From Thermoanaerobaculia bacterium (GTDB lineage: Bacteria; Acidobacteriota; Thermoanaerobaculia; UBA5066; Gp7-AA6): a stretch of 64,000 nt of DNA. The notes beneath the pieces were generated by a model. That model saw only the letters and a list, made by a program, of their open reading frames with translations. It ran no database searches and had not been told where the DNA came from. The first letter of the stretch is position 1; every line of letters starts with the position of its first letter. The translations under genes and the position numbers were made by a program. Below are positions 5,101 to 35,585 of the stretch, piece by piece. The stretch is from positions 8,625 through 72,624 of the forward strand of contig DATJZU010000035.1 in NCBI GenBank assembly GCA_035498835.1. Reading direction: 5' to 3'.

Positions 5101-7604
5101 CCCGCGGCGAGGATCTCGAAGGCCTTGACCGGGCTCGTGGCCTCGGTCAGAGGATTGCGCTTGAAGGGCAGGATGGCCACGTCCATCCGGGCGAGCCAGG
5201 AGGGGATTTCCGCGTACGGCTTCTCGCCCGGCAGCGAGACGTTCGGCAGCTTCGACAGTCGGCTCGTGTCGGCGGTATAGGTCGAGCCCACGAGCAGGAA
5301 GTCCCAGTCGGGCCGTCTTTCCGCGACGTCGGCCACGAGGTCGGAGTCGAACCAGTTGGCGATCGCCCCGTAGTATCCGACGACCGGCCGGGCCTGCCGA
5401 GCGCAAGGCCCGATCTCGAAGTGGCCGGGCTCGCAGGCGTTGGGCAGGAGGAGCACGTTCGCATTCGCCGCGCGGGCCCGCGCTTCGAGGAGGCCGGAAG
5501 ACGCGACGACCAGGTCGGCCGCGGCGAAGAGCTCGCGCTCGTCCTCGGCCATGTCGGGGCGGTTGGTCGTGAAGCCCGCGTGGTCGTCCATGCAATCGTA
5601 GATCACCGGCCAGGCCAGCTCCTCTCGGGCCTTCTGCGCGAGCGGCCACCAGAAAGGCAGCTGGACGACCAGGGCGGTCGCACCGAGCGAGAGGTCGCGG
5701 CGCATGGCGTCGAGGTCCGAGAAAAGCGCGTCGCGGGCGGCGGCGTCCATGGTCTGCCGGTAGACATTGAGCGCGGCGCCGCGGAGCGACACCTCCCAGA
5801 CGTTGTCGCGCTTGCGGCGGAGCTCGTACGGCGCGCCGCCCTCGCGGAACGTCTGCGCGACGTAGAAGACGCGGTGCCCGGCCGCGGCGAAGCGGGACAT
5901 CAACTGCTGCGGTCGCTGGAAGCGGAAGTCCCAGTCGATGATGGGCAGGCAGACGACGTCATGGCGGTTCTCGGCGGCGATCGGCGCCGGCAGCGGAACG
6001 TGGGCCGCGCGCGCCGTCCGGGCGGACGGCGCGGCCGGGGCCGCGGTCCGCGCGTCGGGGCGGGCGGCCGGAGCGCCGCCGCCGAAGAGACGCCGGAGCC
6101 GGCGGCGGAGGGACCAGTAGACCGACATGAGCTTCCAGTAGCGCGAGGTCTGGATCGACAGGATTTCGTTGCGGACCTCGGAGACCTGCTTCTGCAGGAA
6201 GGCCGCCTCGCGCTGGCCGCGCCGCGCCTCGTCCTCGGCGCGCTTCTCGGCGGCGCGCAGCGAGACCGAGAGCGACGCCGCCTCTCGCTCCTTCTCGGAG
6301 AGCCGGCCCGAGAGCGACTGCGCACGCCGCTCCGTCTCGCCGAGCCGCTGCACGAGCCCGCGCTCGATCGGGAATCGTGCGAGCGCCGTCCGGCGAAGCA
6401 GATCGACGATGCCGGCGGTCGCGGCCAGCGCCGGCGCCGCCCCGGACTCGAGCCGCTCGGCGGCGATCTCGGCCGTGCGCCGGGCGCTCTGCGCGAGCGT
6501 GCGGGCGCGCTCGGACAGGTGTTGCGCGTAGCGGCCCCGCTCCTCGAAGGCTTCGGCCAGGCGCGACGCGAGCCCGCCGGCGTCGATCGTTGCGAGCGGG
6601 AGCGCATAGTCGGGCTGGCCGATCTGGCGCATGAACCGCGAGACCTTCGGGTCGTATTCGAGGGAAACGAGCGGCACGCCCGCCGTCGCGGCGAACACGC
6701 CCGCGTGGAGGCGCATCGCAAGCACGAGGTCGCACTGTCCGATCGCCGCCGCGAGCCGCGCGGGGTCGCTTCCTCCCGGCAGGATGCGGGCGGCGTCGCC
6801 GTGGCGCATCCGCTCCCGGACGCGCGCCGCGACGGCCGCGTCGTTCTCCTCGGCGACGGACTCCTGCTGGAACGGCAGGAAGAGCACGGCGCCGCCGCGG
6901 CCCGCCGTTTCGAGGAAGCGATCCAGAGCGCCCGCGGCTGCGGCCTCCCATTGGGCGGGCTCGACGCCGACGTCCCAGTGGCGCAGCGCGACGCCGAGGA
7001 GCGGCCGTTCTTCCGGAATCGCCGGCAGCGGCTCCGGGGCCGCGTCCGCGCGCGGGGCAAACGCAAGCGCGAACGCCGGATCGGCCGTGACCTCGATGCG
7101 CTCGGCCGGCACTCCGAGAGCGACGAGCTCGTCGCGGGACTCGTCGTCGCGCACCGTGATCGTCGCGGCGGCGTCGCAGACGGCCTTCGTGAAATCCCGC
7201 CCGGGTGCCGTCTGGAGCGGTCCGACGCCGGCCGCGTAGATCATGAGCGGCTTTCCATGCAGGACCGCGAGCACGGCCGGCGCGGCGTAGTAGGAGAGGC
7301 CCCAGTGCCGGTCGGTCAGGATGGCGTCGGCGGGGAAGCCCCAGTAATCGTGGAAGATCCCGCCGCCGCCGAGCACGATGAGGTCGGAGCCGCGCGCGGC
7401 GTCTTCGAGGCCGAGCGGATCGCGCCAGAAGACGGTTTCGACGCCGTGGGCCGCCGCCGTCGCGTCGGGATTTCCCGAGACCACCGTGACCGCGGCCTCG
7501 GGCGCGGCCGCGCGCAGGTGCGCCAGGATCGAGGCGAGGATCGCCTCGTCTCCGGCGTTGCCAAAGCCGTAGTAGCCGGCGAGAAGGATGCGGCGCGAGG
7601 TCAC
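2136..7604 (-). CDS. giant multidomain glycopolymer synthase/terminator: polysaccharide pyruvyltransferase (CsaB/WcaK-like) + coiled coil + GT4-like + GT2 + GT4-like + Zn-ribbon + class I SAM methyltransferase (~1822 aa)
   Basis: Uninterrupted ORF (track 2136..7796). The likely start is the GTG at 7604 (alternative TTG at 7616), just before RRILLAGYYGFGNAGDEAILASIL, the conserved N-terminus of the PS_pyruv_trans family. Farther upstream would run into the divergent gene at 7780. Motifs seen: IIDWDFRFQRPQQL with an EATSPVKAFEILAAGRPIV EX7E-like signature (GT4/GT-B); VVVTYNN...VIVVDNASQDGT...DYLVLLNNDTVV (GT2/GT-A); a second GT4-like domain (FLPSVGWGIALFQRPHHL...TSPLKLYEYFAGGKATI); CNVCGERTRFYY...CAHCLTT (4-Cys ribbon); FDVVVTSDVLEQV...VLRPGGVHIFTVPH (methyltransferase type 11). 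A heptad-like segment ERRAQSLSGRLSEKEREAASLSVSLRAAEKRAEDEARRGQREAAFLQKQVSEVRNEILSIQT sits between the pyruvyltransferase and the first GT. Confidence 0.85.
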   Translation of the reverse strand: MTSRRILLAGYYGFGNAGDEAILASILAHLRAAAPEAAVTVVSGNPDATAAAHGVETVFWRDPLGLEDAARGSDLIVLGGGGIFHDYWGFPADAILTDRHWGLSYYAAPAVLAVLHGKPLMIYAAGVGPLQTAPGRDFTKAVCDAAATITVRDDESRDELVALGVPAERIEVTADPAFALAFAPRADAAPEPLPAIPEERPLLGVALRHWDVGVEPAQWEAAAAGALDRFLETAGRGGAVLFLPFQQESVAEENDAAVAARVRERMRHGDAARILPGGSDPARLAAAIGQCDLVLAMRLHAGVFAATAGVPLVSLEYDPKVSRFMRQIGQPDYALPLATIDAGGLASRLAEAFEERGRYAQHLSERARTLAQSARRTAEIAAERLESGAAPALAATAGIVDLLRRTALARFPIERGLVQRLGETERRAQSLSGRLSEKEREAASLSVSLRAAEKRAEDEARRGQREAAFLQKQVSEVRNEILSIQTSRYWKLMSVYWSLRRRLRRLFGGGAPAARPDARTAAPAAPSARTARAAHVPLPAPIAAENRHDVVCLPIIDWDFRFQRPQQLMSRFAAAGHRVFYVAQTFREGGAPYELRRKRDNVWEVSLRGAALNVYRQTMDAAARDALFSDLDAMRRDLSLGATALVVQLPFWWPLAQKAREELAWPVIYDCMDDHAGFTTNRPDMAEDERELFAAADLVVASSGLLEARARAANANVLLLPNACEPGHFEIGPCARQARPVVGYYGAIANWFDSDLVADVAERRPDWDFLLVGSTYTADTSRLSKLPNVSLPGEKPYAEIPSWLARMDVAILPFKRNPLTEATSPVKAFEILAAGRPIVSVPIPEVAPMAPLVRLANRAEEFEREIAAALAEDDPALVARRHAFGKENSWERRFEALAPAVAATFAKATIVVVTYNNLSLNRLCLESLYGRTEWPNFEVIVVDNASQDGTREYLREAESRYANLRVVLNDDNRGFAAANNQGLVLATGDYLVLLNNDTVVTRGWLSALVRHLAAEPKLGLVGPVTNAISNEAKVEVGYEGVEDLPAWAEDFVRENDGHVFAIPMLAMFCLAMKREVYESVGALDERFGTGMFEDDDFNRRARAKGWEIRCARDAFVHHWQKASFRLLGEKKYLALFEENRKKYEEKWGEAWKAEGVDVWKRADLGFYREQLDAVRARIAASEGAVVFLPSVGWGIALFQRPHHLARTFARRGWVAIFDCSNAHDDVNGFKEIQPNLFLFRGPEGLLEQLPEPLLWAFTYNWQKVDAYPAGSASVYDWIDDLEVFPYDRALLEKNHARGLAEATVVASVAKKLHEQALAVRPDAVGVPNGVEFERFADDEAPLPEDKELRAFRESGKPIAGYYGALAEWFDYELLEKVARARPDWNFLLIGPMYDQSLRGQPVLKCPNVLWLGPRDYHSLPGYLRLFDVATIPFKINDITKATSPLKLYEYFAGGKATITTPMPECMAYPEVAIVQTAEDFAAALDPARERGKDAAYRERVRQVGRENSWSARVDTVLEALEKRERAPKAAPRAAASAPAVPAPPKEATGPTDPRFRGMSSLSGTCNVCGERTRFYYTDPLLFRESLTCAHCLTTSRYRSIARGLLRAAEELAGARADNLAALGDALPKRKLAVYDTQVAFYGEGNAYPIPDLLARCSWIDVSTSRFDPKQKRGKRLGGGATNQNLEALTFPDASFDVVVTSDVLEQVRLDERAHSEIRRVLRPGGVHIFTVPHLRDRLTVTRIEVVDPADPSSDRYLMAKEHHGDANSGEGRTLTYRSYGTDLDDKLATLGFTVDYTKDDFPEQGIRNTELFYCRLATPPAG
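2139..2915 (-). other. domain: CxxC...CxxC zinc-ribbon + class I SAM-dependent methyltransferase
   Basis: CNVCGERTRFYY...CAHCLTT, then the methyltransferase motifs FDVVVTSDVLEQV and VLRPGGVHIFTVPH. Confidence 0.65.
3042..4064 (-). other. domain: GT4-like glycosyltransferase B
   Basis: Second GT-B-like domain with a C-terminal TSPLKLYEYFAGGKATI motif. Confidence 0.6.
4152..4895 (-). other. domain: GT2 (GT-A fold) glycosyltransferase
   Basis: VVVTYNN / DNAS.DGT / NNDTVV / ED(D) motifs. Paralogous to the C-domain of the gene at 19481..21529. Confidence 0.7.
5052..5966 (-). other. domain: GT4-like glycosyltransferase A
   Basis: DWDFRFQRPQQL N-terminal motif and EX7E-like C-terminal motif. Paralogous to the N-domain of the gene at 19481..21529. 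Confidence 0.65.
6087..6359 (-). other. domain: predicted coiled-coil spacer (~90 aa)
   Basis: Charged heptad-like sequence rich in E/R/K/A/L/S without Pro/Gly, followed by a Pro/Ala-rich linker. Confidence 0.5.
6477..7604 (-). other. domain: polysaccharide pyruvyltransferase (residues ~65-440 of track ORF)
   Basis: GYYGFGNAGDE N-terminal motif plus ~375 aa with CsaB/WcaK-like features. Coordinates come from residue counting. Confidence 0.7.
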
Positions 7605-7779: not shown

Positions 7780-8619
7780 ATGAAGGGACCCCGCATTCTT
7801 AGCCTCGCTCTGGCTTCTGCGCTCGGATTCGCCGGCGTCGGCCGCGCTCAGGCACCTCCGGCCCTGCCGAACCTCGAAGCGCCCCCGCCGGTGCACCCCG
7901 AGCCCGACATTCAGAGAGACGTCGCGTCCGGGAAACCGGCCTCGCCGCGCGACTACGGCGTCGGTAACGTCAACATCCTTCAGATTCCGGCCGCGGCCTT
8001 CGTCCCTTTCAACACCACCTGGACCCACGATGCCAACGGCTACTTCTTTCCGGTGACGTCGAGCACGATCGCGCACGCGTGGGCGCCGCTCCAACTCCCG
8101 AGCGGCGCGAGCATCCAGTACGTCGACCTCTACTACGACGACACGGACGCCACGTACGACGCGACGGCGAAGATTCTCGCGGCGACCGGCAGCGGCTTCC
8201 TGAGCTCCGTGGCCCTCAACCCGATCGGGACCATCGCTTCATCCTCGAGCAATTCCGGGCAGGGATACGCCGCGTCCACCAAGTTTGCCTACACCGTCAA
8301 CAATGACGTGCAGTACAACGGCGGCGCGCAGCTCATCGTGCAAGTCACCTTGCCCTCGACGGCCATTGGATTCAAGGCCGTGGACATCTGGTGGACGCGC
8401 CAGATCTCTCCCGCCCCCGCGACGGCGACCTTCGCCGACGTCCCGACGAATCATCCCTACTTCCGCGTCATCGAGGCGCTCGCCGCCTCGGGGATCACGA
8501 GCGGCTGCGGCGGAAACAACTTCTGTCCGAACGGCACCGTGACGCGGCAGGAGGTCGCCAAGTTCATGGTGCGGGCGCTCGGTCTCTACTGGAACGACTA
8601 CAACCTGGGGCCCTTCTAG
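7780..8619 (+). CDS. secreted protein with one C-terminal SLH (S-layer homology) domain
   Basis: AAGGAGG Shine-Dalgarno 7 nt before the ATG. Signal peptide MKGPRILSLALASALGFAGVGRAQA. The C-terminus FADVPTNHPYFRVIEALAASGITSGCGGNNFCPNGTVTRQEVAKFMVRAL matches the SLH consensus (F.DV...H....I..L...GI..G....F.P...VTR.E.A). It is divergent from the giant gene. Confidence 0.8.
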   Translation: MKGPRILSLALASALGFAGVGRAQAPPALPNLEAPPPVHPEPDIQRDVASGKPASPRDYGVGNVNILQIPAAAFVPFNTTWTHDANGYFFPVTSSTIAHAWAPLQLPSGASIQYVDLYYDDTDATYDATAKILAATGSGFLSSVALNPIGTIASSSSNSGQGYAASTKFAYTVNNDVQYNGGAQLIVQVTLPSTAIGFKAVDIWWTRQISPAPATATFADVPTNHPYFRVIEALAASGITSGCGGNNFCPNGTVTRQEVAKFMVRALGLYWNDYNLGPF

Positions 8620-8668
8620 CGATCGCTTCCGATCGAAGGCGAGCCGGCCCGGCGTAGACTCCTCCCCC

Positions 8669-11656
8669 GTGAGGGTGAGCTGGTCTCGCGTTCTCTGCGT
8701 GCGCCGGGCCGACCCCTTCCGTCTCTCGGTCGGCGACCAGGCGACCGCCGATTTCGGGCCGGGGCTGCTCCGCTTCCTCAGTCTCGCGGACGCGGAAGGC
8801 CGGCGCCTGGGAGAAGGCTTCGCCGGGGAATGGGTCATCCCGATCGCCGCGGCCGGGACCGCCGCCTTCGCCGCCGTCGGCGAGGAGTTCAATCCGTGGA
8901 CGGCCGCGTCGAACTCGGTCATCTTCCACCGCGCCGTCCGCGACGGCGAGACCGTGGAGGCCACGGTCGAGGTGGCGAGCCTCAAGGGGACGTCCGTGCG
9001 GCTGCCGTACCGGATCGTCGGCGCCGAGTCGCGCGATCCCGTGGCGGAGGGCGAGTTCGTCTTCGTCTGCGTCGGCCCGAGTGGGCCGAGGCGCTTCGAT
9101 CCGCGGCTGGTGCCCCGGAGCGCGCCGGAAGCGGCCGGAGCCGTTGCTGGCCGCCCCCCGCTTCCCGTTGCGGTCGGCCGGCCGACGTGGCGTGCGCGCG
9201 CCGCGGGCGCCGTTCTGCCGCGGTCGCTCACGCGCGGCCTGCGCGTCGCGTACTGGCACGGCCTGGCCCAGCGGGGCCGCCGGACCTCGCCCGCCGAATT
9301 CCTGTCGGGCCTCCGAAGCGTGTGGCGGTCCGACGCGGGGCGCGGGACCGAAGCTCCGTTGTCCTTTCGGGATCGCCTTCTCGACGTCTTTCTGCCGCCG
9401 TCCGCCGCGGACGCGTTCCGCGCCGCGTGGCGTGCCCCGAGAGAGACCGCCGAAGCCGGGCCGATCCGGTTCGCGGTGCGGCCCGTCGCACTGGCGAAAG
9501 GCCAGAGCGTCGACCTCCCGATCGAGATCTCGAATCCGGCCGGCGTCTCGATCGACGCCGAGATCGAGATCGAAACGCCGTACGGTTTCGGACTGGCCGC
9601 CGACTGGACGAAGAGCGAAAGGGTGCGGCTTTCGCCGGGCCAGACGGCGGGCGCGTCCGTGAGGGTCACGGCGCTCCGCCCGGACGAGGTCAACCTCGGT
9701 CGTCCATGGCCTCTCGTGTGCCGCCTCCGGGCGGGAGCGGCGGTGCTCGGCTCCGATCGGATCGCGCTCGCCGTCGCGGACCCGGACCCCGGGTCGATCT
9801 TCTACGTCCTCACCGAGGACTGCGAGACGTTCGACGGCGGCGAGACGACGGGCGCGTACGGTGCGGCGGGCGTCCTCGGAAATCGCAACGGCTTCATGGA
9901 TCCGGAGGAGTACCGCGTCCAGATGATCGCGAAGCCCGACGCGCTGAACGCCATCGCGGAGAAGCACGGGGCGCGCTGGACGCACTTCTGGACGGCGCCG
10001 CAGCGCTTCGCGGCGGCGTGGGCGGCGAGCCGATCGAAGACGGGGGCGTGGGACGCGGTGGTCCGCCAGCTCGACGAGTCCGTGCGGCGGGGCTCGCGCG
10101 CGCACGAGTACGCGCCCCACATCCATTTCGACTACGAGCCCGACTCGAGCCTTCCGCCGCAGCCCCGTCTCGTGTACGACGCGAAGACGGACGGAATCCT
10201 TCCGGCCGAGTACTACGATCCGGTATCCAATCCCGACCACCGGTACCACGGCTGGGATGGCGCCCGGAAGGGGATCGCCTACGTGCGCCGCGAGGGAGAT
10301 CTCTCCGACGTCGATTCGAAGAAGGGCTCCCTGCGCAAGTCCGTGCGCTATCTGGCGGATCTGTCTTTCGCCGGGCGCCTCTCCCGATGCGCCCGAACGG
10401 GGGCGGCCGACTTCGGAGCGGCGCCGGCGGATCTCGGTGCGAGCGCGCGCGCGGCCGCGGCCAACGGCCTCGTGGCCAACTCGGATGCCGGGGTCTATGC
10501 GGCGAAGAGCCCGCTGCCGCGGGGCCGGCAGATCTACTTCTGCCGACCGGACGACCTGGACGCGGAGATCGAGGAGCTCTCCGCCGCCGCGCTCGTCGAG
10601 CTGCGCGCGCCCGACTTTCAGCTCGAGCAGGGATCGCTCGAGGAGCTCAACGCGTGGTTCGACCGCCGATACCTCGAATCCCGGGGCCCCGGCGTGCGGG
10701 CGATCATCGCGATGACCCACGCGATGTTCGTCAAAGGCGCGCCGGATCCGTTTCGGGACACGGCGGGAGGCGATTTCGACAAGATCGACCATCACCTGGA
10801 GCACGTGGCCCGCGCACACCCCGACGTCCGGTTCGCGACGGCATCGGAAGCGGCGCTCGAGTTCCTCGACTACTACACGCCGGTGCCGCGCGCCGTGGCG
10901 CTCGAGGCGCGAGCCCGATCCGCCGACGGAACCGTATGGATCCACCCCGTCCGGATCCTGGGCAAGGGGATTCCGCTTCCCGCGCGGCTGACGGTGCAGG
11001 CACCGCCGCATCTGGACGCGCACGCGATCCGTTCCCTCGCGATCCTCGACGCCGGAGAGCCGATGCCGGATTGCTCCTGGACGGCGAGCCCGGGAGAGCT
11101 CGCCTCGGCGGAGTTCACGGCGGTGCGGCGGGAAGGGTACGCCCTGCGCGTCGAGACATCGCGCTCGATCGAGCACCGGCTCTGCGGCGCCGCGGTCCCG
11201 GCCGCGCCCGGCCCTCTCTTCGAGGAGGCCGGCGACGGGAGCGACGCCCGGGCCGATCTCCTTCGGCTCGATCCGCCGGAGCTCCTCCGCGGAGAGGTCC
11301 GAGGCATCGACGCCGTGAAGCCGGGCGACCGCTGGGAGTGGCGTTACCCGGGCGACCTCTTTCACCTGCTCGTCCATCCCGTCGCGGGCAACGCGCATCC
11401 CCTCGGACGGCGTCTCCATCCGTACGGGCGGTATTCCGAGGGCATCGCGATCGACGCCGCCCGGCGGGTGCTCGGGCCCGGCATCCGGCCGGCGGGATTC
11501 GAGCTCCAGTGGGTTCGGCCCGTGCGGGGCGGCGCGGATTTTCGCGTCGCGTGCCTGCTCGAGGCGATGACAGCCGAAGCGGCCGTCATGCAAACTTCGG
11601 TCGAAGAGTCGGGAGTCGAGGTCGCGCGGATCCGTCTGTCACTGGCGCGGTCTTAG
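8669..11656 (+). CDS. multidomain protein: N-terminal hotdog-fold thioesterase-like domain, central beta-sandwich-like segment, C-terminal NodB/polysaccharide-deacetylase-like or glycoside-hydrolase-like domain (995 aa)
   Basis: GTG start, continuous ORF. The N-terminal ~145 aa (GEWVIPIAAAGTAAF...VEATVEVASLKGTSVRLPYRIVG...GEFVFVCVG) resemble 4HBT-type thioesterases. Downstream motifs FYVLTEDCETFDGG and HEYAPHIHFD are reminiscent of the NodB/CE4 TFDDG and His motifs. Family assignment of the large domain is uncertain. Confidence 0.6.
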   Translation: MRVSWSRVLCVRRADPFRLSVGDQATADFGPGLLRFLSLADAEGRRLGEGFAGEWVIPIAAAGTAAFAAVGEEFNPWTAASNSVIFHRAVRDGETVEATVEVASLKGTSVRLPYRIVGAESRDPVAEGEFVFVCVGPSGPRRFDPRLVPRSAPEAAGAVAGRPPLPVAVGRPTWRARAAGAVLPRSLTRGLRVAYWHGLAQRGRRTSPAEFLSGLRSVWRSDAGRGTEAPLSFRDRLLDVFLPPSAADAFRAAWRAPRETAEAGPIRFAVRPVALAKGQSVDLPIEISNPAGVSIDAEIEIETPYGFGLAADWTKSERVRLSPGQTAGASVRVTALRPDEVNLGRPWPLVCRLRAGAAVLGSDRIALAVADPDPGSIFYVLTEDCETFDGGETTGAYGAAGVLGNRNGFMDPEEYRVQMIAKPDALNAIAEKHGARWTHFWTAPQRFAAAWAASRSKTGAWDAVVRQLDESVRRGSRAHEYAPHIHFDYEPDSSLPPQPRLVYDAKTDGILPAEYYDPVSNPDHRYHGWDGARKGIAYVRREGDLSDVDSKKGSLRKSVRYLADLSFAGRLSRCARTGAADFGAAPADLGASARAAAANGLVANSDAGVYAAKSPLPRGRQIYFCRPDDLDAEIEELSAAALVELRAPDFQLEQGSLEELNAWFDRRYLESRGPGVRAIIAMTHAMFVKGAPDPFRDTAGGDFDKIDHHLEHVARAHPDVRFATASEAALEFLDYYTPVPRAVALEARARSADGTVWIHPVRILGKGIPLPARLTVQAPPHLDAHAIRSLAILDAGEPMPDCSWTASPGELASAEFTAVRREGYALRVETSRSIEHRLCGAAVPAAPGPLFEEAGDGSDARADLLRLDPPELLRGEVRGIDAVKPGDRWEWRYPGDLFHLLVHPVAGNAHPLGRRLHPYGRYSEGIAIDAARRVLGPGIRPAGFELQWVRPVRGGADFRVACLLEAMTAEAAVMQTSVEESGVEVARIRLSLARS

Positions 11657-11678
11657 GAGCATGTAGACTCGCGCCGCT

Positions 11679-12719
11679 GTGGCGGCCGAGTCGATCGTCG
11701 TCGTCTGTCCCGACACGAACGTCCGCCTTTGGGTCTCCCGCGCCTCCGAAGCGCCGACGGGAGGGGGCAAGACCTCGATCCTCCAGCTCGCGGCCGCCTG
11801 GGTGAGGGCCGGCCACTCCGTCACGATCGCGGCATCGGCGGCTCGCCCCGAGGACCGCGACGGCATCGCCGTCCGCGAGATCGAGGCGGCGGCGGGAGAC
11901 TACGACGTCGCGATCTTCGTGACGGGCTCGCTCGGCCATTTCCGCGCGCCGGGTGTCGACGCGATCCGCGCGGACCGCCGGCTGTTCTGGCAGAACGGCC
12001 CGGGAAGGGCAGAGCTTCCGCCCGGCCGGGTGGACTGGTACGTCGCGCCGGCGAAGTTTCTCGCCCGGCGCGCCGTGGACGAGTGGGGGCATCCTCCCGA
12101 GAAGGTCGTCGTCATTCCCGGCGAAGCGGTGCGCCGCCGGCGCGCGGTCTCCGAGGCCGCGTCGCGCGATCCGCTCGCGGCGGTCTACGCGAGCCACCCG
12201 TTCAAAGGGCTCCGGGAAGCGGTCGAGGTGCTCGGGCATCTGCGCGCGGAGTTTCCCGACGTGCGGCTCGACGTGTACGGCTCCGAGCGATTGTGGGCCG
12301 ACGGCGCCGCGCCGTCCGCGGAGCGCGTTCTGCCGGAGTGGGTGCGCCGCGCCGGAGAGACGCCGCAGAGCGAAGTCGAGCGCCGCATGGCGGACTACGG
12401 ATTGATGCTGTACCTGACCGAATGGGTGGACGGGTTCTCGCTTTCCACCGCCGAGGCGCTCGCGGCGGGAGTCGTCGTCATCGCCACGGCGCACGGAGCG
12501 AACGCCGAGTTCCTGAGGCACGGCTGGAACGGCTTTCTCGTGGGCTCGGACGGCGGCCGCCCAGACCTGCTCGAGGCGCAGAGTCTCGCGCGCGCCTATC
12601 TGCGCGATCCGGCGGCCTTTGCCGGCGTCCGCGCCAACGCCATGGCGTCCGTGCCCACCTGGGACGAGCAGGCCGACGAGTGGCGCCGTCTGTGGCGGTC
12701 GCCCCTCAGGGGCGCCTAA
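11679..12719 (+). CDS. GT4 family glycosyltransferase (GT-B)
   Basis: GTG start 23 nt after the previous stop. Motifs GGGKTSILQLA and EGFSLSTAEALAAGVVVIATAHGANAEFL (EX7E signature). Confidence 0.8.
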   Translation: MAAESIVVVCPDTNVRLWVSRASEAPTGGGKTSILQLAAAWVRAGHSVTIAASAARPEDRDGIAVREIEAAAGDYDVAIFVTGSLGHFRAPGVDAIRADRRLFWQNGPGRAELPPGRVDWYVAPAKFLARRAVDEWGHPPEKVVVIPGEAVRRRRAVSEAASRDPLAAVYASHPFKGLREAVEVLGHLRAEFPDVRLDVYGSERLWADGAAPSAERVLPEWVRRAGETPQSEVERRMADYGLMLYLTEWVDGFSLSTAEALAAGVVVIATAHGANAEFLRHGWNGFLVGSDGGRPDLLEAQSLARAYLRDPAAFAGVRANAMASVPTWDEQADEWRRLWRSPLRGA

Positions 12720-12792
12720 AGGCCGATTTCGGGGGGATCCGGCGGGTTACAATTTTCTCCTCGGGCCGGAACGCCCAAACAAAGGACAGATC

Positions 12793-14826
12793 TTGAGGAT
12801 TCGGGGAAGAGGACTCTTTCGCGCGGCCCGCGCGTGCCTCGCCGTCCTGGCGCTCGGCGCCGGCGCGGCCGCCGCGCGCGCGCAGCCCGCCCCGGATGTC
12901 ACGCTCCAGCCGTACATCGGGTCCCTGACGTACCCCCTGGGGTTCGTCAACGCGGGCGACGGCAGCGGCCGCAACTTCGTCGTCACACAGTTCGGAAAGA
13001 TCTTCGTGTACCAGGGAAACACCGGCCTCGGCACGTTCCTGGACGTGAGCGGGCTCCTCCCTTGCGGCGATCCGAGTGCGGGGGGCTGCGGCGAGCAGGG
13101 GCTGCTCGGCCTCGCGTTCCACCCGAACTACGCGTCCAACGGGCTCTTCTTCATCGATTACACGAACGTGGACGGCGACGAGGTGATCGCGCGCTACAAG
13201 GTCTCGTCCGACCCGAACGTCGCCGACCCGGCGAGCGCGACGATCCTCCTCGTCGTGCCCGACCCGTTTCCCAACCACAACGGCGGCCAGCTCCAGTTCG
13301 GGCCCGACGGATACCTCTACATCGCGATGGGCGACGGCGGTTCCGGCGGCGACCCGGGCAACCGCGCACAGAACCTCGGCGTGCTGCTCGGCAAGATCTT
13401 GCGGATCGACGTGGACGGATCGGGAACGGTGCCCTGCGGCCAGTCCACGCCGATGCCCTACGCCATTCCGGACGACAACCCGTTCGTCGGCGCCGCGGGC
13501 GCCTGCGAAGAGGTCTGGGCCTACGGCATGCGGAATCCCTGGCGCTTCAGCTTCGACCGCGAGAACGGCGATCTCTTCATCGGGGACGTCGGGCAAGACC
13601 TCTACGAGGAGGTCGACGACCAGCCGGCGGGCACGCCCGGCGGCCGCAACTACGGCTGGCGCCGCATGGAAGGCTTCCACTGCTACGACCCCGCGGCCAA
13701 CTGCGACGACGGCACGCTGACGCACCCGATCCTCGAGCACGACCACTCCCTCGGCTGCGCGGTGACCGGCGGCTACGTCTATCGCGGCGCGGCCTACCCG
13801 CAGTTGAACGGCGTCTACGTCTACGGCGACTACTGCAGCGGGACGATCTGGGGCGCGGTGCGCGACGCGGCGGGCGTCTGGTCGGAGCGCGCGATCGGGA
13901 CGTCGCAGCTCATCAGCTCCTTCGGCGAGGATGAAGCGGGGGAGCTCTACGTCGTCGAGCACAGCGGTTCGGTGAAGAAAGTCACCAGCGCAACCGCATT
14001 CCTCAAGCCGTCGGTCTCCGCGCTCGCGCCGGGCGCGGCCGTCAAGGGCGACCCGGGAATCCTCCTCACGGTGGACGGTTCGGGCTTCACGCCTTCGTCG
14101 ATCGTGCGGTGGAATGGATCCGGCCGGGCGACGACCTACGTGTCCCGCACGCGTCTCGAGGCGGCGATCCCGGCCGGCGACCTGGCCGCGCCGGGGACGG
14201 CTTCGGTGGCGGTCGCGAACCCGGCGCCGGGCGGCGGCGTCTCGGCGGGAATGACGTTTTCGATCACAAACCGCTTCCTCGACGTGCCGCTCGCGTATCC
14301 GCTGCGGCGTCCGATCGAAGGGATCGCGGCGGCGGGGATCACGACGGGATGCGGCGACCGCATCTTCTGCCCGGAGTCCCCGGTGACGCGCGACCAGATG
14401 GCCGTGCTTCTCCTCCGCGGCGAGCACGGCTCGTCCTATGCGCCGCCAGGGGCGACCGGCACGATCTTCTCCGACGTCTCCAAGACGGCGTTCGCCGCGG
14501 CGTTCATCGAGCGGCTCTCCGCGGAAGGGATCACGACCGGCTGCGGCATGGGGAACTACTGTCCCGCCGTGCCGGTGACCCGCGCGCCGATGGCGAAGTT
14601 CCTGCTGCGCGCGCACGATGGCCCGACCTATCAGCCGCCGCCCGCGCAGGGAGTCTTCACGGACGTGCCGGCGTCGGCGCCGTTCGCCGCGTGGATCGAA
14701 GAGCTGTCCGCCCGCGGCATCACGACGGGCTGCGGCGGCGGCAAGTTCTGTCCCGACATGACCGTCACGCGCGCCCAGATGGCCGCGTTTCTCGCCCGGA
14801 CGTTTTCCATTTCGTTGCCGCCTTAG
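12793..14826 (+). CDS. secreted PQQ-dependent sugar dehydrogenase-like beta-propeller (GSDH/YliI family) + IPT/TIG-like domain + three C-terminal SLH repeats
   Basis: TTG start with an AAGGA Shine-Dalgarno 6 nt upstream. Signal peptide LRIRGRGLFRAARACLAVLALGAGAAAARA. GSDH hallmarks FHPNY...DGYLYIAMGDGG...YGMRNPWRFSFD...GRNYGWRRMEG. Three repeats of the form ...EGIAAAGITTGCGDRIFCPESPVTRDQMAVLLLRG. Confidence 0.8.
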   Translation: MRIRGRGLFRAARACLAVLALGAGAAAARAQPAPDVTLQPYIGSLTYPLGFVNAGDGSGRNFVVTQFGKIFVYQGNTGLGTFLDVSGLLPCGDPSAGGCGEQGLLGLAFHPNYASNGLFFIDYTNVDGDEVIARYKVSSDPNVADPASATILLVVPDPFPNHNGGQLQFGPDGYLYIAMGDGGSGGDPGNRAQNLGVLLGKILRIDVDGSGTVPCGQSTPMPYAIPDDNPFVGAAGACEEVWAYGMRNPWRFSFDRENGDLFIGDVGQDLYEEVDDQPAGTPGGRNYGWRRMEGFHCYDPAANCDDGTLTHPILEHDHSLGCAVTGGYVYRGAAYPQLNGVYVYGDYCSGTIWGAVRDAAGVWSERAIGTSQLISSFGEDEAGELYVVEHSGSVKKVTSATAFLKPSVSALAPGAAVKGDPGILLTVDGSGFTPSSIVRWNGSGRATTYVSRTRLEAAIPAGDLAAPGTASVAVANPAPGGGVSAGMTFSITNRFLDVPLAYPLRRPIEGIAAAGITTGCGDRIFCPESPVTRDQMAVLLLRGEHGSSYAPPGATGTIFSDVSKTAFAAAFIERLSAEGITTGCGMGNYCPAVPVTRAPMAKFLLRAHDGPTYQPPPAQGVFTDVPASAPFAAWIEELSARGITTGCGGGKFCPDMTVTRAQMAAFLARTFSISLPP

Positions 14827-14861
14827 GGGAAGTGAGGGAGGAGGTCCTCGAGAGGCCCAGA

Positions 14862-16937
14862 ATGACATCCGCACCGCCCGCCCCGCGGCGGGGAACAACG
14901 AGAGCCGGAGCCCGGCTCTTCTTGATCCTCGTCGCCGCTTCTTTGAGCGCGCTCCCCGCGCCCGCGGCCACGCTCGGCGGACCCGTGCCGCCGCCGCTGC
15001 CGCTCTTCCCGCAATCCAACTGGTGGAACCTGAACATCTCCGCCGCTCCGCTCGACCCGGGCTCGGCGTCGTACATCACGTTCCTCGGCGCCGGCGGCGT
15101 GACCGGCGCGCATCCGGATTTCGGCGGCAACAACGGGCCGGTCGCGATCTACGGCTTCCCGTATTGCGTCGTCCCGGGAAGCCAGGCGAAGAAGGCGGTC
15201 ACGTTCCAGTACTGGGACGAGAGCGACGGCGTCGACTACGGCACGCACGCCGGCCTGCCGTTCTATCCGATCCCCGACGAGGCGATCACGCAGAACCACT
15301 GGATCGAGGGCGGCCAGCCCGGCAACGCCACCGTCAGCGGCGATCGCCACATGCTCATCCTCGACCAGGACAACAAGATGCTTTACGAGCTCTTCGCGCT
15401 CAAGTGGGACACGACGAACTCGCGGTGGAAGGCGGGCTCGGGTGCCGCGTTCGACCTCAAGAAGAACGGCCGCCGTCCCGACACGTGGACGTCCGCCGAT
15501 GCCGCGGGGCTCGCGATCCTGCCCGGACTGGTGCGATATGACGAGGTGTACGGTCCCGGCGAGATCGGGCACGCCTTCCGCGTGACGGTGCGCGACTCGG
15601 ACGGCTACGTCTATCCCGCGTCGCACGACGCCGGCTCGCAGGCGGGCGCTCTGCCGATGGGCGCGCGGCTCCGTCTCAAAGCGTCGAAGGACATCTCGGG
15701 CTACGACCCCGCCGTGCAGAAGATCTTCCGCGCGATGAAGAAGTACGGCTTGATCGTGGCCGACAACGGGACCGACCTCTACGTCAGCGGGAGCTGGGAC
15801 ACGCGGTGGGACAACGACATCCTGAATCCCGCCTTCGGCGATCTCGCGCCGTCGGACTTCGAGGTCGTCACGCTGGGATACATGCCCCAGGTCGCCGCGG
15901 GCCTCGCCGTCGACGCGCACTCCGGGACGGGAACGACGTCCGACGCCAACGGCGTCCTCGAGCCCGGCGAGACCGTGCTGGTCGAGCCGTCGTGGACCTA
16001 CCAGGGGAATTCGTCGAAGTCTCTGACCGGCGCTGCCTCGGCGCTCGCGGGACCGGCCGGCGCTTCCTATACGCTCGCCGACGCGGCGGCGTCCTACGGG
16101 ACGGTCCCGGCCGTCGCAACGGGAGACGGCGCGACGGTCTCCTGCACGGGCGCCGGCGGCAATTGCTATCGCATCGCGGTCTCGGCGCCGGCGGTCCGGC
16201 CGGCGGCGCACTGGGACGCGACCGTCACCGAGACGCTGTCGACGAGCGGCGTCTGGAAGTGGACGCTCCACGTGGGCGATAGCTTCGCCGACGTGCCGCG
16301 CACGAACCCCTTCTACGCGAAGATCGAGACGCTCTTCCACCACGGTGTCACGTCGGGCTGCGCCGCGGGCCTCTACTGTCCCGACGACGCGGTCGTGCGC
16401 TATCAGATGGCGATCTTCCTCGCGAACACGCTCGCCCGCGGCGGTTCGAACGTGCCGGCCTCCGGCTCGTGGAACGGGCAGGCCTACAACTGCAAGGCGG
16501 GAGGCGTCTCGATCTTTCTCGACATCGCGCCGACGGACGCCTTCTGCAAGCACGCGCACTACCTGGCGGTCCAGAACGTGACGCTCGGATGCTCCGGGAA
16601 CTTCTTCTGCCCGAGCGCCGCCGTGTCGCGTCTCGAGATGGCGGGATTCGTCGCGCGGGAGATGGTCGCGCCGGGCGGCGGCGGCGCGGTCCCGGCGGCC
16701 TACGGCCCCGATCCCGTCACCGGACGTTCCTACAGCTGCAGCACGACCGCCCCGAACATCCATTTCACCGACGTGCCCTCGACCGACCCGTACTGCAAGC
16801 TCGCCCACTACCTCTGGGCGCGCGGCGTGATCGCCGGCTGCACGCCGACCGACTACTGCGCGGGCTCCCCCGTCACGCGCGGCGAGATGTCGAAGTTTCT
16901 TTCGAACGCGGCGGGGCTGACTCTGTACGGTTCGTAG
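14862..16937 (+). CDS. secreted protein of unknown N-terminal family with three C-terminal SLH repeats
   Basis: ATG preceded by GGGAGGAGG. Signal peptide MTSAPPAPRRGTTRAGARLFLILVAASLSALPAPAA. C-terminal repeats FADVPRTNPFYAKIETLFHHGVTSGCAAGLYCPDDAVVRYQMAIFL / FLDIAPTDAFCKHAHYLAVQNVTLGCSGNFFCPSAAVSRLEMAGFV / FTDVPSTDPYCKLAHYLWARGVIAGCTPTDYCAGSPVTRGEMSKFL. Confidence 0.8.
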   Translation: MTSAPPAPRRGTTRAGARLFLILVAASLSALPAPAATLGGPVPPPLPLFPQSNWWNLNISAAPLDPGSASYITFLGAGGVTGAHPDFGGNNGPVAIYGFPYCVVPGSQAKKAVTFQYWDESDGVDYGTHAGLPFYPIPDEAITQNHWIEGGQPGNATVSGDRHMLILDQDNKMLYELFALKWDTTNSRWKAGSGAAFDLKKNGRRPDTWTSADAAGLAILPGLVRYDEVYGPGEIGHAFRVTVRDSDGYVYPASHDAGSQAGALPMGARLRLKASKDISGYDPAVQKIFRAMKKYGLIVADNGTDLYVSGSWDTRWDNDILNPAFGDLAPSDFEVVTLGYMPQVAAGLAVDAHSGTGTTSDANGVLEPGETVLVEPSWTYQGNSSKSLTGAASALAGPAGASYTLADAAASYGTVPAVATGDGATVSCTGAGGNCYRIAVSAPAVRPAAHWDATVTETLSTSGVWKWTLHVGDSFADVPRTNPFYAKIETLFHHGVTSGCAAGLYCPDDAVVRYQMAIFLANTLARGGSNVPASGSWNGQAYNCKAGGVSIFLDIAPTDAFCKHAHYLAVQNVTLGCSGNFFCPSAAVSRLEMAGFVAREMVAPGGGGAVPAAYGPDPVTGRSYSCSTTAPNIHFTDVPSTDPYCKLAHYLWARGVIAGCTPTDYCAGSPVTRGEMSKFLSNAAGLTLYGS

Positions 16938-16974: not shown

Positions 16975-17799
16975 CTACCACTTCTCCCAGACCGAGAGGT
17001 CCTGATAGCGGTTGAGGCCGTTCTCGCGGAAGTGCCGCAGGCCGAAGCAGCGGCCCCAGGTCGCGACGAGGTACTCGCGCGAGTGGAACGCCGAATCGTC
17101 GTTGAATCGGCCGCCGCCCGCGGCAAAGACGAAACCGCGCCGGGCGAGGGCCTGGCGGTCATCCTCCGAAAGGTCGGGCCGGCTCCAGGAGAGCCCGGGA
17201 GCGTGGGTCGAGGCGATCAGGAGGCCGCCCGGGCGCATCACGCGATGGAGCTCGGCGAGCCAGGCCAGCTGGCGCTCCTCGGACAGGTGGGTGAAGACCG
17301 ACCCGGCGTAGACGACGTCCATGTGCCCCGGCGGCAGTGCGGTCGGCGGATCGGCCGCGACGCGCGCGTATCGGCCTCGGACGTGCGACGCCGTCCATTG
17401 GAGCGCCTCCTCGTCCACGTCGATTCCCCAGAGCTCGCCGATCGGAACGGTCCGTTCCAGATGGCGCGCGACGCGGCCGCAGCCGCAGCCGAAGTCGAGC
17501 CAGCGCGCGTAGCGGCTCGCCGGTTGCCGGCTCGCTTCGAAGACGTCGCGGATGTTTTCCGACGCTTCCCGGCCGGCCGAGAGAAAGGTCGCGCGCGAGC
17601 TCGTTCCCGAGACGCGGTAGCGGAGCCGGGGCGGCGGCAACGGGTCTTCGTGGAATCGGTCGAGGATGTCCGGAACGAGGTCGCGAAGACGCACCGGTGT
17701 TTCGCGAAGCAGGAGCCGGCCGCGCCGGCGCCAGTCGAGCGGCACACGCCGCCGTGCGATCGCCCGGATTCGGCCGCTATCGGCCGCGTTCGTGCTCAT
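16975..17799 (-). CDS. class I SAM-dependent methyltransferase
   Basis: Motifs LDFGCGCGRVARHL, VVYAGSVFTHL and VMRPGGLL. The start ATG at 17799 overlaps the wzt stop (ATGA), so it is the last gene of the wecB-GT-wzm-wzt operon. Confidence 0.75.
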   Translation of the reverse strand: MSTNAADSGRIRAIARRRVPLDWRRRGRLLLRETPVRLRDLVPDILDRFHEDPLPPPRLRYRVSGTSSRATFLSAGREASENIRDVFEASRQPASRYARWLDFGCGCGRVARHLERTVPIGELWGIDVDEEALQWTASHVRGRYARVAADPPTALPPGHMDVVYAGSVFTHLSEERQLAWLAELHRVMRPGGLLIASTHAPGLSWSRPDLSEDDRQALARRGFVFAAGGGRFNDDSAFHSREYLVATWGRCFGLRHFRENGLNRYQDLSVWEKW

Positions 17800-18584
17800 G
17801 AGGACGGCGGTCGAGCGGCGGGGCTCGGCAGCGGCGGAGCGTCTCCGCCTCCCACGGACCACTCGTGGTACGCCTCGGCCACTTCAGCGGCGGGGCCCTG
17901 GCTCACGACGAGGCCCTCGTGGATCCAGACCGCGCGGTTGCAGATCTCCTGGATCAGGCGCGTCGAGTGGGAGACGAAGACGATCGTCTTGCCGCTCCGG
18001 CGGAACTCGTTCATCCGCGCCTGGCACTTCAGCTGGAAGCGCTCGTCGCCGACGGCGAGCGCCTCGTCGATGAGGAGGACGTCGGGGTCGACGTCGGTCG
18101 CGACGGAGAAGGCGAGACGCGCGGCCATGCCCGTCGAGAACGTTCGCAGCGGCGCGTCCACGAACTCCTCGAGCTCCGCGAACGCGACGATTCGGTCCAG
18201 GCGGCGCTTCATCTCCGCCCGCGAGAACCCGAGGAGCGCCCCCTGCAGCATGACGTTCTCGCGTCCCGTCAGCTCGCCGTGGAGGCCGAGACCGAGCTCG
18301 AGGATCGGCGCGACGCGGCCGGCGACGATGACCCGGCCTCCCGTGGGCGGGATGATGCGCCCGATCACGCGCAGCGCCGTGCTCTTGCCGGCGCCGTTGC
18401 GGCCCACGATGCCGAGCGTCTCTCCGGTTCCGACCTCGAACGACACGCCGCGGAGAGCTTCGAACTGATCGAAGAAGATCCGCCGCTTCAGCTTGCGGAT
18501 CGCGTATTCCTTGATCGAGCGGATGCGCTCGCGCGGGACGAGGTACCCGACGTGAACGCCTTCGAGGCGGACCGCGACGCTCAT
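17796..18584 (-). CDS. wzt: polysaccharide ABC exporter ATP-binding protein (Wzt/TagH/KpsT-like), short form without C-terminal carbohydrate-binding domain
   Basis: Walker A GRNGAGKST, signature FSTGMAARL, Walker B LLIDEALAVGD. Only 262 aa. Confidence 0.9.
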   Translation of the reverse strand: MSVAVRLEGVHVGYLVPRERIRSIKEYAIRKLKRRIFFDQFEALRGVSFEVGTGETLGIVGRNGAGKSTALRVIGRIIPPTGGRVIVAGRVAPILELGLGLHGELTGRENVMLQGALLGFSRAEMKRRLDRIVAFAELEEFVDAPLRTFSTGMAARLAFSVATDVDPDVLLIDEALAVGDERFQLKCQARMNEFRRSGKTIVFVSHSTRLIQEICNRAVWIHEGLVVSQGPAAEVAEAYHEWSVGGGDAPPLPSPAARPPSS

Positions 18585-22686: not shown

Positions 22687-22730
22687 GCCGGCAGTCTAAG
22701 CCAACGGACGATCCGGGCGCCGCGGAAGCG

Positions 22731-35581: not shown

Positions 35582-35585
35582 GACT

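Follow-up and report, generated by a model that had tools for sequence, protein, structure and literature searches.

Seven repeats of the S-layer homology (SLH) type, each with two cysteines at the same positions, are encoded by three plus-strand genes (A, B and C) of a Thermoanaerobaculia bacterium (Acidobacteriota), within the 64-kb stretch of DNA analysed here (the window), whose closest genome match is an Acidobacteriota MAG with 95% identity. Taken as a whole, the reading that we consider probable is that the three proteins are exported, that their SLH domains anchor them to a pyruvylated glycan made by the same locus, and that a Cys30-Cys36 disulfide serves as a staple stabilising the fold. 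SLH is the textbook non-covalent wall anchor, studied almost entirely in the Firmicutes, the lineage in which it was defined, and in a few deep-branching diderms. The CsaB-linked locus described below suggests that SLH/pyruvyl-glycan anchoring is also at work in Acidobacteriota, and the Cys pair apparently marks a widespread and undescribed variant of a well-known domain, an embellishment that brings no new mechanism.

A six-frame regex scan combined with a register table gave exactly seven Cys-pair SLH repeats in the three genes, and the scan recovered no further ones in any of the six frames of the 64-kb window. A preliminary description of this DNA had reported seven such repeats over three proteins, and every string that it quoted was located, including the seven motifs given here. 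Protein A has a single repeat (profile positions 1-52 at 8419..8574, + strand; GITSGCGGNNFCP; motif TRQE), with the codons of Cys30 at 8506-8508 and of Cys36 at 8524-8526. Those of protein B, all on the + strand, are B1 (14263..14418; GITTGCGDRIFCP; TRDQ), B2 (14455..14610; GITTGCGMGNYCP; TRAP) and B3 (14644..14799; GITTGCGGGKFCP; TRAQ). Protein C, also on the + strand, contains C1 (16272..16427; GVTSGCAAGLYCP; VRYQ), C2 (16503..16658, or 16491..16658 with an extra Cys pair; VTLGCSGNFFCP and NVTLGCSGNFFCP; SRLE) and C3 (16752..16907, or 16737..16907 with an extra Cys pair; VIAGCTPTDYCAG and GVIAGCTPTDYCAG; TRGE). In PROSITE numbering, the register table places the two Cys at SLH-30 and SLH-36 in all seven repeats, with a uniform C-x5-C spacing (positions i and i+6) and zero indels relative to the canonical profile. 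The canonical residues that had been proposed for these columns (Gly, Asp, Thr or Phe-Arg) are roughly right; solved SLH structures show variable residues there, with N/T and E for Sap and with K and G for the first repeat of SbsB. The additional upstream Cys noted earlier in DAFCKHAHYL and DPYCKLAHYL was found as well, in C2 and C3, respectively, and each has as its partner a linker Cys located 18-19 residues upstream (YNC at 16491-16493 with FCK at 16545-16547 in C2; YSC at 16737-16739 with YCK at 16794-16796 in C3). All four of these extra Cys are retained in the orthologues of loci L005-L007.

The three proteins differ in what precedes these repeats. Gene A (7780..8619, + strand; 279 aa) encodes a predicted Sec-type signal peptide (MKGPRILSLALASALGFAGVGRAQA), a domain of ~190 aa and its one C-terminal Cys-pair SLH repeat. 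The product of gene B (12793..14826, + strand; 677 aa, TTG start) combines a predicted signal peptide with a beta-propeller of the PQQ-dependent glucose/sorbosone dehydrogenase type (Pfam GSDH, 118 bits; NF058597, 105 bits), a CoaZ/Ig-like repeat and its three SLH repeats of the Cys-pair form; an identical protein is present in NCBI as HTO75271.1, 'PQQ-dependent sugar dehydrogenase [Thermoanaerobaculia bacterium]'. Gene C (14862..16937, + strand; 691 aa) encodes a predicted signal peptide and a ~400-aa domain; an Ig-like segment containing a Cys pair comes next, ahead of three divergent SLH repeats of the Cys-pair form. Its near-identical NCBI entry is annotated 'hypothetical protein'. By inspection, all three N-termini resemble Sec signal peptides. 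The passenger domains of A and C gave no significant NCBIfam family and no sequence match in the PDB. Cys are mostly locally paired in the mature proteins: exactly two in A, 14 in B, forming seven local pairs, and 13 in C, with six local pairs and one single Cys.

The assignment of the repeats to SLH, as originally proposed, is upheld by profiles and by predicted structures. Searches with the Pfam SLH profile (PF00395), a check that had been suggested with the proposal, gave SLH for A (38.8 bits) and B (67.9 bits in three stretches), both above the gathering cutoff of 20.8. Protein C scored 16.7 bits, below this cutoff, and all three of its repeats were aligned by a profile of the homologues of B (153 bits, E 1.7e-48); more distant orthologues of C have standard SLH repeats. 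PF00395 is precomputed on all of the best 120 homologues, and the PDB matches of the family profile are Sap, SbsB, SlpA and 8bz2, 8bym and 8bys. The last three are chains that the PDB lists under the name 'S-layer homology domain-containing protein'. AF2 modelled the SLH repeats of B with a pLDDT of 97.2 and a pTM of 0.91, and those of C with a pLDDT of 85.5. The models superpose on the Sap and SpaA trimers, with TM scores of 0.64-0.84 against 3pyw, 6bt4 and SpaA-SLH; the predicted structure of B reached 0.79/0.84 against 3pyw and ~0.7/0.8 against SpaA, and that of C a target-normalised 0.80 against 3pyw. The three repeats of B and those of C are thus each predicted by the models to form one pseudo-threefold SLH unit, with a three-helix core and three lobes.

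Regarding ligand residues, Gly29 and Arg43 are present in all seven window repeats and Gly25 in six of them (Asn in C2). Trp13, the third SLH ligand residue, which stacks on the ManNAc ring, occurs in none of the seven: Pro13 is followed by Phe14 or Tyr14 in A, B3, C1 and C3, Phe13 is found in B2, Ala13-Phe14 in C2 and Pro13-Leu14 in B1. Position 13 or 14 is nevertheless aromatic in six of the seven and in most of the family, where the residue at 13 is W in 29%, F in 26% and P in 22% of repeats. In SpaA, Gly29 and Arg43 bind pyruvate; Gly29 is near-universal in the SLH GIIxG motif and its backbone flips on ligand binding (PMC6081394). The exact TRAE motif is absent from all seven repeats, and the preliminary description had seen in this variability a possible sign of a modified ligand. 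This suggestion finds no support, since Arg43 is invariant here, the motif is mostly TRAQ across the family, SpaA itself carries TRAE/TVEE/TRAQ (PMC6081394) and the enzymes for the canonical epitope adjoin the SLH genes.

These enzymes belong to a polysaccharide locus on both sides of the SLH genes. Upstream of gene A, an 1822-aa fusion (2136..7604, - strand) starts with a CsaB-like polysaccharide pyruvyl transferase domain (PF04230, 122.8 bits) and continues with GT1, GT2 and methyltransferase domains; its CsaB domain scored 210.4 bits against TIGR03609, covering the full model and falling just below the equivalog cutoff of 213.1. This fusion is presumed to be the maker of the SLH ligand. Between gene A and a GT4-family glycosyltransferase gene (11679..12719, + strand) lies a conserved 985-aa ORF (8699..11656, + strand), syntenic in L005 and L006, for which no Pfam, NCBIfam or PDB family was found beyond a weak N-terminal 4HBT/YbgC match. 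Downstream of gene C, all on the - strand, follow a SAM-dependent methyltransferase (16975..17799), a Wzt/TagH-like ATPase of a polysaccharide-export ABC transporter (17796..18584), a Wzm-like ABC-2 permease (18600..19445), a GT1 and GT2 fusion glycosyltransferase (19481..21529) and a non-hydrolysing UDP-GlcNAc 2-epimerase of the WecB/MnaA type, for UDP-ManNAc supply (21526..22695; PF02350, 358 bits; TIGR00236, 419.6 bits versus a cutoff of 210). The predicted CsaB and WecB/MnaA next to the SLH genes are the activities needed to make the canonical 4,6-pyruvyl-ManNAc epitope. The arrangement of SLH genes with CsaB, WecB and Wzm/Wzt is syntenic in L005-L007, and CsaB is also located less than 10 kb from SLH genes in L060 and L066. 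An OdhA-like fused 2-oxoglutarate dehydrogenase is encoded in the window as well. It raised the idea of an actinobacterial origin, which is rejected on account of the 95% match to an Acidobacteriota MAG and of the Thermoanaerobaculia entry identical to protein B. Scans for tRNAs and Rfam families gave no matches in the 64 kb.

It is conceivable, yet unlikely, that the domains keep the SLH fold without anchoring to a pyruvylated polymer in this diderm, serving another glycan or as a protein-protein module, with the CsaB locus being coincidental. The lack of conservation of Trp at position 13 would agree with this, as would the TRAQ consensus in place of TRAE and the Val that replaces SpaA Lys48 in the family consensus, but the pyruvate-binding Gly29 and Arg43 are invariant and an aromatic is mostly kept at 13 or 14. 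Acidobacteriota, to our knowledge, also fall outside the diderm groups in which SLH anchoring has been studied. CsaB lies within 10 kb in only 4 of 79 loci, a further point for this alternative; nevertheless, this is several times the rough expectation of ~0.4 (assuming one csaB per ~4 Mb genome), and CsaB and the ManNAc epimerase flank three SLH genes in an arrangement that is kept in L005-L007.

Concerning the Cys pair itself, 952 distinct repeats related to these were compared from other genomes and metagenomes: both Cys are present in 945 and both are missing in 5, with no true singles. Shared ancestry inflates this count, because all 952 are fairly closely related to the query (39-72% identity). 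Two apparent single-Cys repeats were rejected as mis-registered C-x8-C repeats. Since 945 of the 952 have both Cys, the pair is conserved rather than fortuitous, and the earlier view that it marks a recognisable SLH subtype holds. A neutral peculiarity passed down within one large paralogous subfamily, its two residues neither bonded nor coupled, appears very improbable indeed as an explanation of the pair. The relatedness of the sampled repeats to the query does mean that conservation could reflect shared ancestry, but no true single-Cys repeat was found among the 952, which come from at least four phyla, the adjacent columns (28, 32, 34 and 38-40) vary freely in the family consensus, and an unpaired Cys in an exported protein is usually selected against. 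The five repeats that lack both Cys also argue against it, among them one of an otherwise Cys-type triple in L060, in which the two were lost together. This joint gain and loss matches the prediction for a disulfide, which is thereby supported at the sequence level, and because the Cys strictly co-occur across related repeats, a disulfide staple between Cys30 and Cys36 is the most likely reading of the pair.

The length of the inter-Cys loop varies (x5 in 792 repeats, x7 in 127, x6 in 14, x8 in 11 and x4 in 1), while both ends remain Cys, and the intervening residues are mostly Gly and Asn (C-G-G-G-N-Y-C in the 718-repeat consensus). DSSP detected an isolated i/i+3 bridge at SLH-31/34 on the B and C models, a pattern suggestive of a tight hairpin whose base is formed by the two Cys. 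Counting against the disulfide, residues 30 and 36 of an ideal 2-residue hairpin would be offset by one residue and not directly cross-strand. A metal site or a redox switch for ligand binding beside Gly29, in domains that would still be SLH, is quite improbable as an explanation of the pair. Lys110 of SpaA (SLH-30), the position taken by Cys30, is among the pocket-forming residues (PMC6081394), and His residues are close to the extra Cys in C2 and C3 (FCKHAHYL), both points in favour of such a role. Each repeat nonetheless offers only two thiols, with no conserved His, Asp or third Cys alongside in the 718-repeat consensus, and the variable C-x4 to C-x8 spacing is typical of loop closure and not of a metal site; the remaining Cys of A, B and C are likewise in local pairs. 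A joint metal cluster of six Cys was rejected because the published fold puts the SLH loops in three separate lobes (PMC6081394).

Under the disulfide reading, A, B and C would be Sec-exported envelope proteins held in place non-covalently, most likely by their C-terminal SLH domains. Each of B and C, with three repeats, would form the usual pseudo-trimeric SLH unit; the single repeat of A could not do so alone and would need oligomerisation. The ligand would most likely be a pyruvylated, ManNAc-containing polysaccharide, built and exported by the surrounding locus through the CsaB-like fusion, the WecB/MnaA epimerase and the Wzm/Wzt ABC exporter, and located either as a periplasmic wall polymer or at the cell surface. 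The Cys-pair loop would form one side of the ligand groove, directly after the ligand-binding Gly29, with its base probably closed by the Cys30-Cys36 bond. The staple would be a fold-stabilising extra in lineages able to oxidise exported proteins and would leave function unchanged. No Dsb or VKOR genes were found within the 64-kb window.

A survey of other genomes, as had been recommended, recovered the variant in Acidobacteriota, Chloroflexota, Gammaproteobacteria and Rokuibacteriota, with strong matches to more than 11,000 protein clusters (at 50% identity) in public data. The Cys-pair form therefore accounts for a very large part of the SLH domains in environmental sequences. Among the best 79 loci, Chloroflexota/Anaerolineales and Acidobacteriota are about equally common (30 to 44), which leaves the initial idea of an adaptation to the diderm periplasm unsupported, as Chloroflexota/Anaerolineales are usually taken as monoderm. 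Full-text literature searches on SLH in connection with cysteine, disulfides or Acidobacteria brought up no account of this variant, and the PDB has no solved structure of it. LysBT1 was rejected as a precedent, given that its Cys are stated to form no disulfides and that its SLH domain is from a Firmicute (PMC12285257). A broader proposal, which we regard as rather unlikely, is that the Cys-stapled SLH and the CsaB locus constitute a general Gram-positive-style display system in Acidobacteriota, some Gammaproteobacteria and Chloroflexota, with a pyruvylated glycan of the envelope as the attachment site for dozens of enzymes and adhesins, and that the disulfide beside Gly29 alters the binding mechanism, for example by pre-organising a flexible loop and thereby making all three grooves active. 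The Acidobacteriota and those Gammaproteobacteria are diderms outside the groups with known SLH tethering. As to the staple, its neighbour would be Gly29, with the backbone flip through which the ligand is bound. If real, the staple would offer an easy route to SLH tags of greater stability and would also serve to recognise oxidative folding in phyla that have not been cultured.

The closest known systems are Sap of Bacillus anthracis (3PYW, 6BT4) and SpaA of Paenibacillus alvei (6CWC-6CWR, 7SV3-7SV6), which likewise have three tandem repeats of ~55 residues. The predicted three-lobed fold agrees with theirs (TM 0.68-0.84 for the B model), and so does the register, including the GIxxG motif, Gly29 and T-R at 42-43. 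Position 45 is variable in the window repeats, as in the three SpaA motifs, and the genomic partnership of the SLH proteins with CsaB and a UDP-GlcNAc 2-epimerase is shared. In contrast, Cys occupy SLH-30/36 where Sap has N/T and E, the loop is a Gly-rich C-G-G-G-N-Y-C instead of the x-x-D-G-x-F-x of Sap/SpaA-type SLH, the Trp13 of the latter is often Pro13-Phe14, and the family consensus is TRAQ-M-A-V-F-L. The hosts also differ (Acidobacteriota, Chloroflexota and Gammaproteobacteria versus Firmicutes), and the Cys-pair SLH is the C-terminal domain of enzymes and adhesin-like proteins rather than a part of S-layer lattice proteins.

SLH modules in a diderm periplasm are also known from SlpA of Deinococcus (7ZGX), matched by the family profile, and from OmpM of Negativicutes. 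These outer-membrane tethers of diderm Terrabacteria have one SLH repeat per chain, the unit being formed by trimerisation, and by analogy they may provide a model for gene A. Nevertheless, they combine an N-terminal SLH with a coiled coil and a beta-barrel, whereas A, B and C have a C-terminal SLH and neither barrel nor coiled coil, and A, unlike them, lacks an evident trimerisation element. We know of no conserved Cys pair in SlpA or OmpM. Finally, proteome statistics, in which SLH domains are not covered, indicate that Firmicutes exclude Cys from exported proteins while other lineages use disulfides (Daniels et al., 2010; PMC2823432). With their mostly locally paired Cys, in even number in A and B, the three window proteins resemble the disulfide-dependent exported proteomes of Actinobacteria and diderms, and the Cys-free canonical SLH derives from the Cys-excluding lineage, the Firmicutes.

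Three plus-strand genes in the 7.7–17 kb interval of the window, whose G+C content is about 70%, encode products that end in SLH-like repeats; their gene calls were taken from the identical public contig. Gene A (7780–8619, +) encodes 279 amino acids with one repeat, gene B (12793–14826, +) starts with TTG and encodes 677 amino acids with three repeats behind a PQQ-type sugar dehydrogenase domain and an Ig-like repeat, and gene C (14862–16937, +) encodes 691 amino acids, also with three repeats. In a six-frame scan of the 64 kb, the pattern G-[IV]-x-x-G-C-x5-C-[PA] retrieved exactly these seven repeats, without any eighth outside A, B and C, and all the strings quoted in the preliminary description were found in them. 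The spacing of the Cys pair is C-x5-C in the window repeats. Repeats 2 and 3 of C carry in addition an extra cysteine with a partner 18–19 residues upstream (YNC…FCK and YSC…YCK), and these four residues are all retained in orthologues from three related genomes. By inspection, A, B and C have Sec-type signal peptides. A and C carry passenger domains without assignment. That of C (14862–16200, +, about 400 amino acids) matched no family or PDB entry; among the 79 related loci analysed, 24 encode relatives of it, and in full-length C orthologues it is followed by a Cys-pair Ig-like segment and an SLH triple.

The repeats of A, B and C are SLH domains. A and B pass the curated Pfam SLH cutoff (38.8 and 67.9 bits, respectively), whereas C remains below it (16.7 bits, cutoff 20.8). 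A profile of 76 B-triple homologues (A1) aligned all three repeats of C, with 153 bits, and searched against the PDB it matched SLH proteins only (Sap, SbsB, Deinococcus SlpA and three chains named "S-layer homology domain-containing protein"). The AlphaFold2 model of the B triple has very high confidence (pLDDT 97.2, pTM 0.91); it can be superposed on 3pyw, the crystal structure of the Sap SLH, with TM-scores of 0.79/0.84, and on the SpaA-SLH structures too. The model of the C triple (pLDDT 85.5, with low values confined to the long linkers) reaches a target-normalised TM-score of 0.80 on 3pyw.

The window is part of a metagenome contig. Its protein B has an identical counterpart in NCBI, HTO75271.1, assigned to a Thermoanaerobaculia MAG; among genomes, an Acidobacteriota MAG matches best, with 95% identity. 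The A1 profile matched 150,835 clusters at E ≤1e-3 and 11,260 at ≤1e-30 among 1.84 billion representatives. The genome scan retrieved at least 599 stretches, and the 79 best loci comprise 44 from Acidobacteriota, 30 from Chloroflexota (Anaerolineales, Ca. Villigracilis) and five from Gammaproteobacteria (Sedimenticola and another). The proposal that the Cys pair is an adaptation to the diderm periplasm is therefore not supported, because among these loci Chloroflexota carry the variant about as often as Acidobacteriota. Rokuibacteriota is the name on one metagenomic match within the best 120 word-index matches. Several MAGs encode many paralogues with varied passenger domains. Cys-type SLH triples are present in Gammaproteobacteria MAGs (Sedimenticola, SZUA-272; loci L029, L047, L048, L054 and L077); Proteobacteria are not usually associated with SLH anchoring. 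At L054, they are accompanied by a UDP-GlcNAc 2-epimerase and a weak match to a pyruvyl transferase. The L066 locus comes from a Chloroflexi genome in which Cys-type SLH triples and a nearby CsaB coexist with a canonical Cys-free SLH (HWA…GISGGYPDGTYKP…TRAE). The latter is located N-terminally in a protein (5785–6930, +) that has its own cysteines elsewhere (GCFSD…FICW).

In our window, A, B and C are embedded in a glycan locus. A fusion of a CsaB-like pyruvyl transferase, GT1, GT2 and a C-terminal methyltransferase (2136–7604, −; 1822 amino acids) has an N-terminal domain that matches PF04230 with 122.8 bits and scores 210.4 bits against the CsaB model TIGR03609 (cutoff 213.1). The fusion is unusually large for a single polypeptide, and similar fusions are found in two related loci (L060 and L007). 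The locus further contains a related GT1+GT2 fusion (19481–21529; 682 amino acids), a GT4 glycosyltransferase, a methyltransferase, a Wzt/TagH-like ATPase, a Wzm-like permease and a WecB/MnaA-type UDP-GlcNAc 2-epimerase (419.6 bits). Just upstream of the CsaB fusion adjoin a polytopic membrane protein of 558 amino acids without family match (463–2139, −) and the tail of a 594-residue protein with weak PMT_2/GT-C matches (1–447, +), both of which could be periplasmic-face glycosyltransferases of the same pathway. Between A and the GT4 gene lies a 985-residue ORF (8699–11656, +) for which Pfam, NCBIfam and the PDB yielded no family beyond a weakly YbgC/4HBT-like N-terminus; it is conserved and syntenic in L005 (91%) and L006 (58%). 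Outside this locus, the window encodes a 1209-residue 2-oxoglutarate dehydrogenase (56811–60440, +) in which an E2-type acyltransferase domain is fused to the front of E1. This is the OdhA/Kgd architecture, known above all from Actinobacteria and present here on an acidobacterial contig. The window also contains two tandem paralogous genes (33113–38102, −) of about 830 amino acids each, in whose products a long N-terminal part without assignment is followed by an M1 peptidase domain at the C-terminus.

The gene order A, 985-residue ORF, GT4, B and C is retained in L005, L006 and L007, and in L060 and L066, too, CsaB is found no more than 10 kb away from genes for Cys-type SLH proteins (in L060 at 10650–11561, close to an SLH triple at 3–2537). 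The 4,6-pyruvyl-ManNAc epitope to which SLH trimers bind is the product of CsaB and MnaA (PMC6081394; PMC10435577, PMC11464976). Therefore, the presence of these epitope enzymes beside the SLH genes, together with the kept gene order, makes ordinary SLH anchoring the most likely mechanism for A, B and C. A pyruvylated polysaccharide produced from the same locus, either wall-linked in the periplasm or exposed at the surface, would hold the exported enzymes and binding proteins in place. Protein A, with its single repeat, would need to oligomerise, as SlpA is reported to do (PMC9388160).

The seven repeats fit the SLH profile numbering of Blackler et al. (2018; PMC6081394) without indels, with cysteines at SLH-30 and SLH-36. 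The three ligand residues in that study are Trp13, Gly29 and Arg43. Gly29 ends the GIIxG motif, and its backbone flips when the ligand binds; Arg43 belongs to the TRAE motif. Both Gly29 and Arg43 occur in every one of the seven repeats, and Cys30 thus comes immediately after the glycine that flips. Trp does not occur at position 13; most repeats have Pro13 with Phe/Tyr14 behind it, or Phe13. The variable TRAE motif had been taken to suggest recognition of a modified ligand; this reading is not supported, since Arg43 is invariant, TRAQ is the norm in the family, SpaA presents similar variation (PMC6081394) and the enzymes for the canonical ligand adjoin.

On indirect evidence, a disulfide between Cys30 and Cys36 is the best reading of the pair. 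The best 120 word-index matches, the 79 best species-representative loci and the best 149 cluster representatives yielded 952 distinct repeats; both cysteines are present in 945 and neither in five, although these repeats are relatives of the query and so do not count as independent events. Two apparent single-Cys repeats were mis-registered C-x8-C repeats. Repeat 1 of the L060 triple (3–2537, +) has lost its two cysteines jointly (GITQGSGGNFQP), with repeats 2 and 3 retaining theirs. The inter-Cys length varies (x5 in 792 repeats, x7 in 127, x6 in 14, x8 in 11 and x4 in one) and both ends stay Cys, which is how a closed loop behaves. Gly and Asn are frequent in the segment between them (consensus C-G-G-G-N-Y-C from 718 repeats), and on the predicted models DSSP assigns an isolated i/i+3 bridge to SLH-31/34. 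In repeat 3 of C this bridge is missing, yet the separate "E-E" marks before helix 2 are still there, and an isolated "E--E" is also seen in a linker of the C model; the 31/34 bridge thus appears self-paired, suggesting a tight hairpin with the two cysteines at its base. Against a disulfide, positions 30 and 36 would lie one residue out of register in an ideal hairpin, and no Dsb gene was found within the window. In favour of it, the other cysteines of these proteins are locally paired as well; in total, mature A has two cysteines, B 14 in seven pairs, and C 13 in six pairs plus one. Cysteines are excluded from exported proteins in Firmicutes, where SLH was defined; in other lineages, Cys counts are biased towards even numbers (Daniels et al., PMC2823432). 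A further Cys pair joins the linker to the repeat start (PPAC-x-G-x-F-x-DV-x-CP) in P0002, P0007, P0008 and the L060 triple and is common to many homologues; additional putative staples have therefore arisen within the subfamily at more than one site.

The Cys-pair SLH subtype advanced in the preliminary description is real. Public pipelines label these proteins SLH, with C as "hypothetical"; our full-text literature search found no description of the Cys-pair form, and the A1 search retrieved no PDB entry with it. This form is a widespread and apparently undescribed variant of a familiar domain, worth knowing about and unsurprising. In characterised SLH proteins, the two Cys columns hold other residues: SpaA has the pocket-forming Lys110 in the place of Cys30 (PMC6081394), Sap has N/T and E in the two columns, and repeat 1 of SbsB has K and G, so that SLH-30 and SLH-36 are variable positions in the canonical domain.
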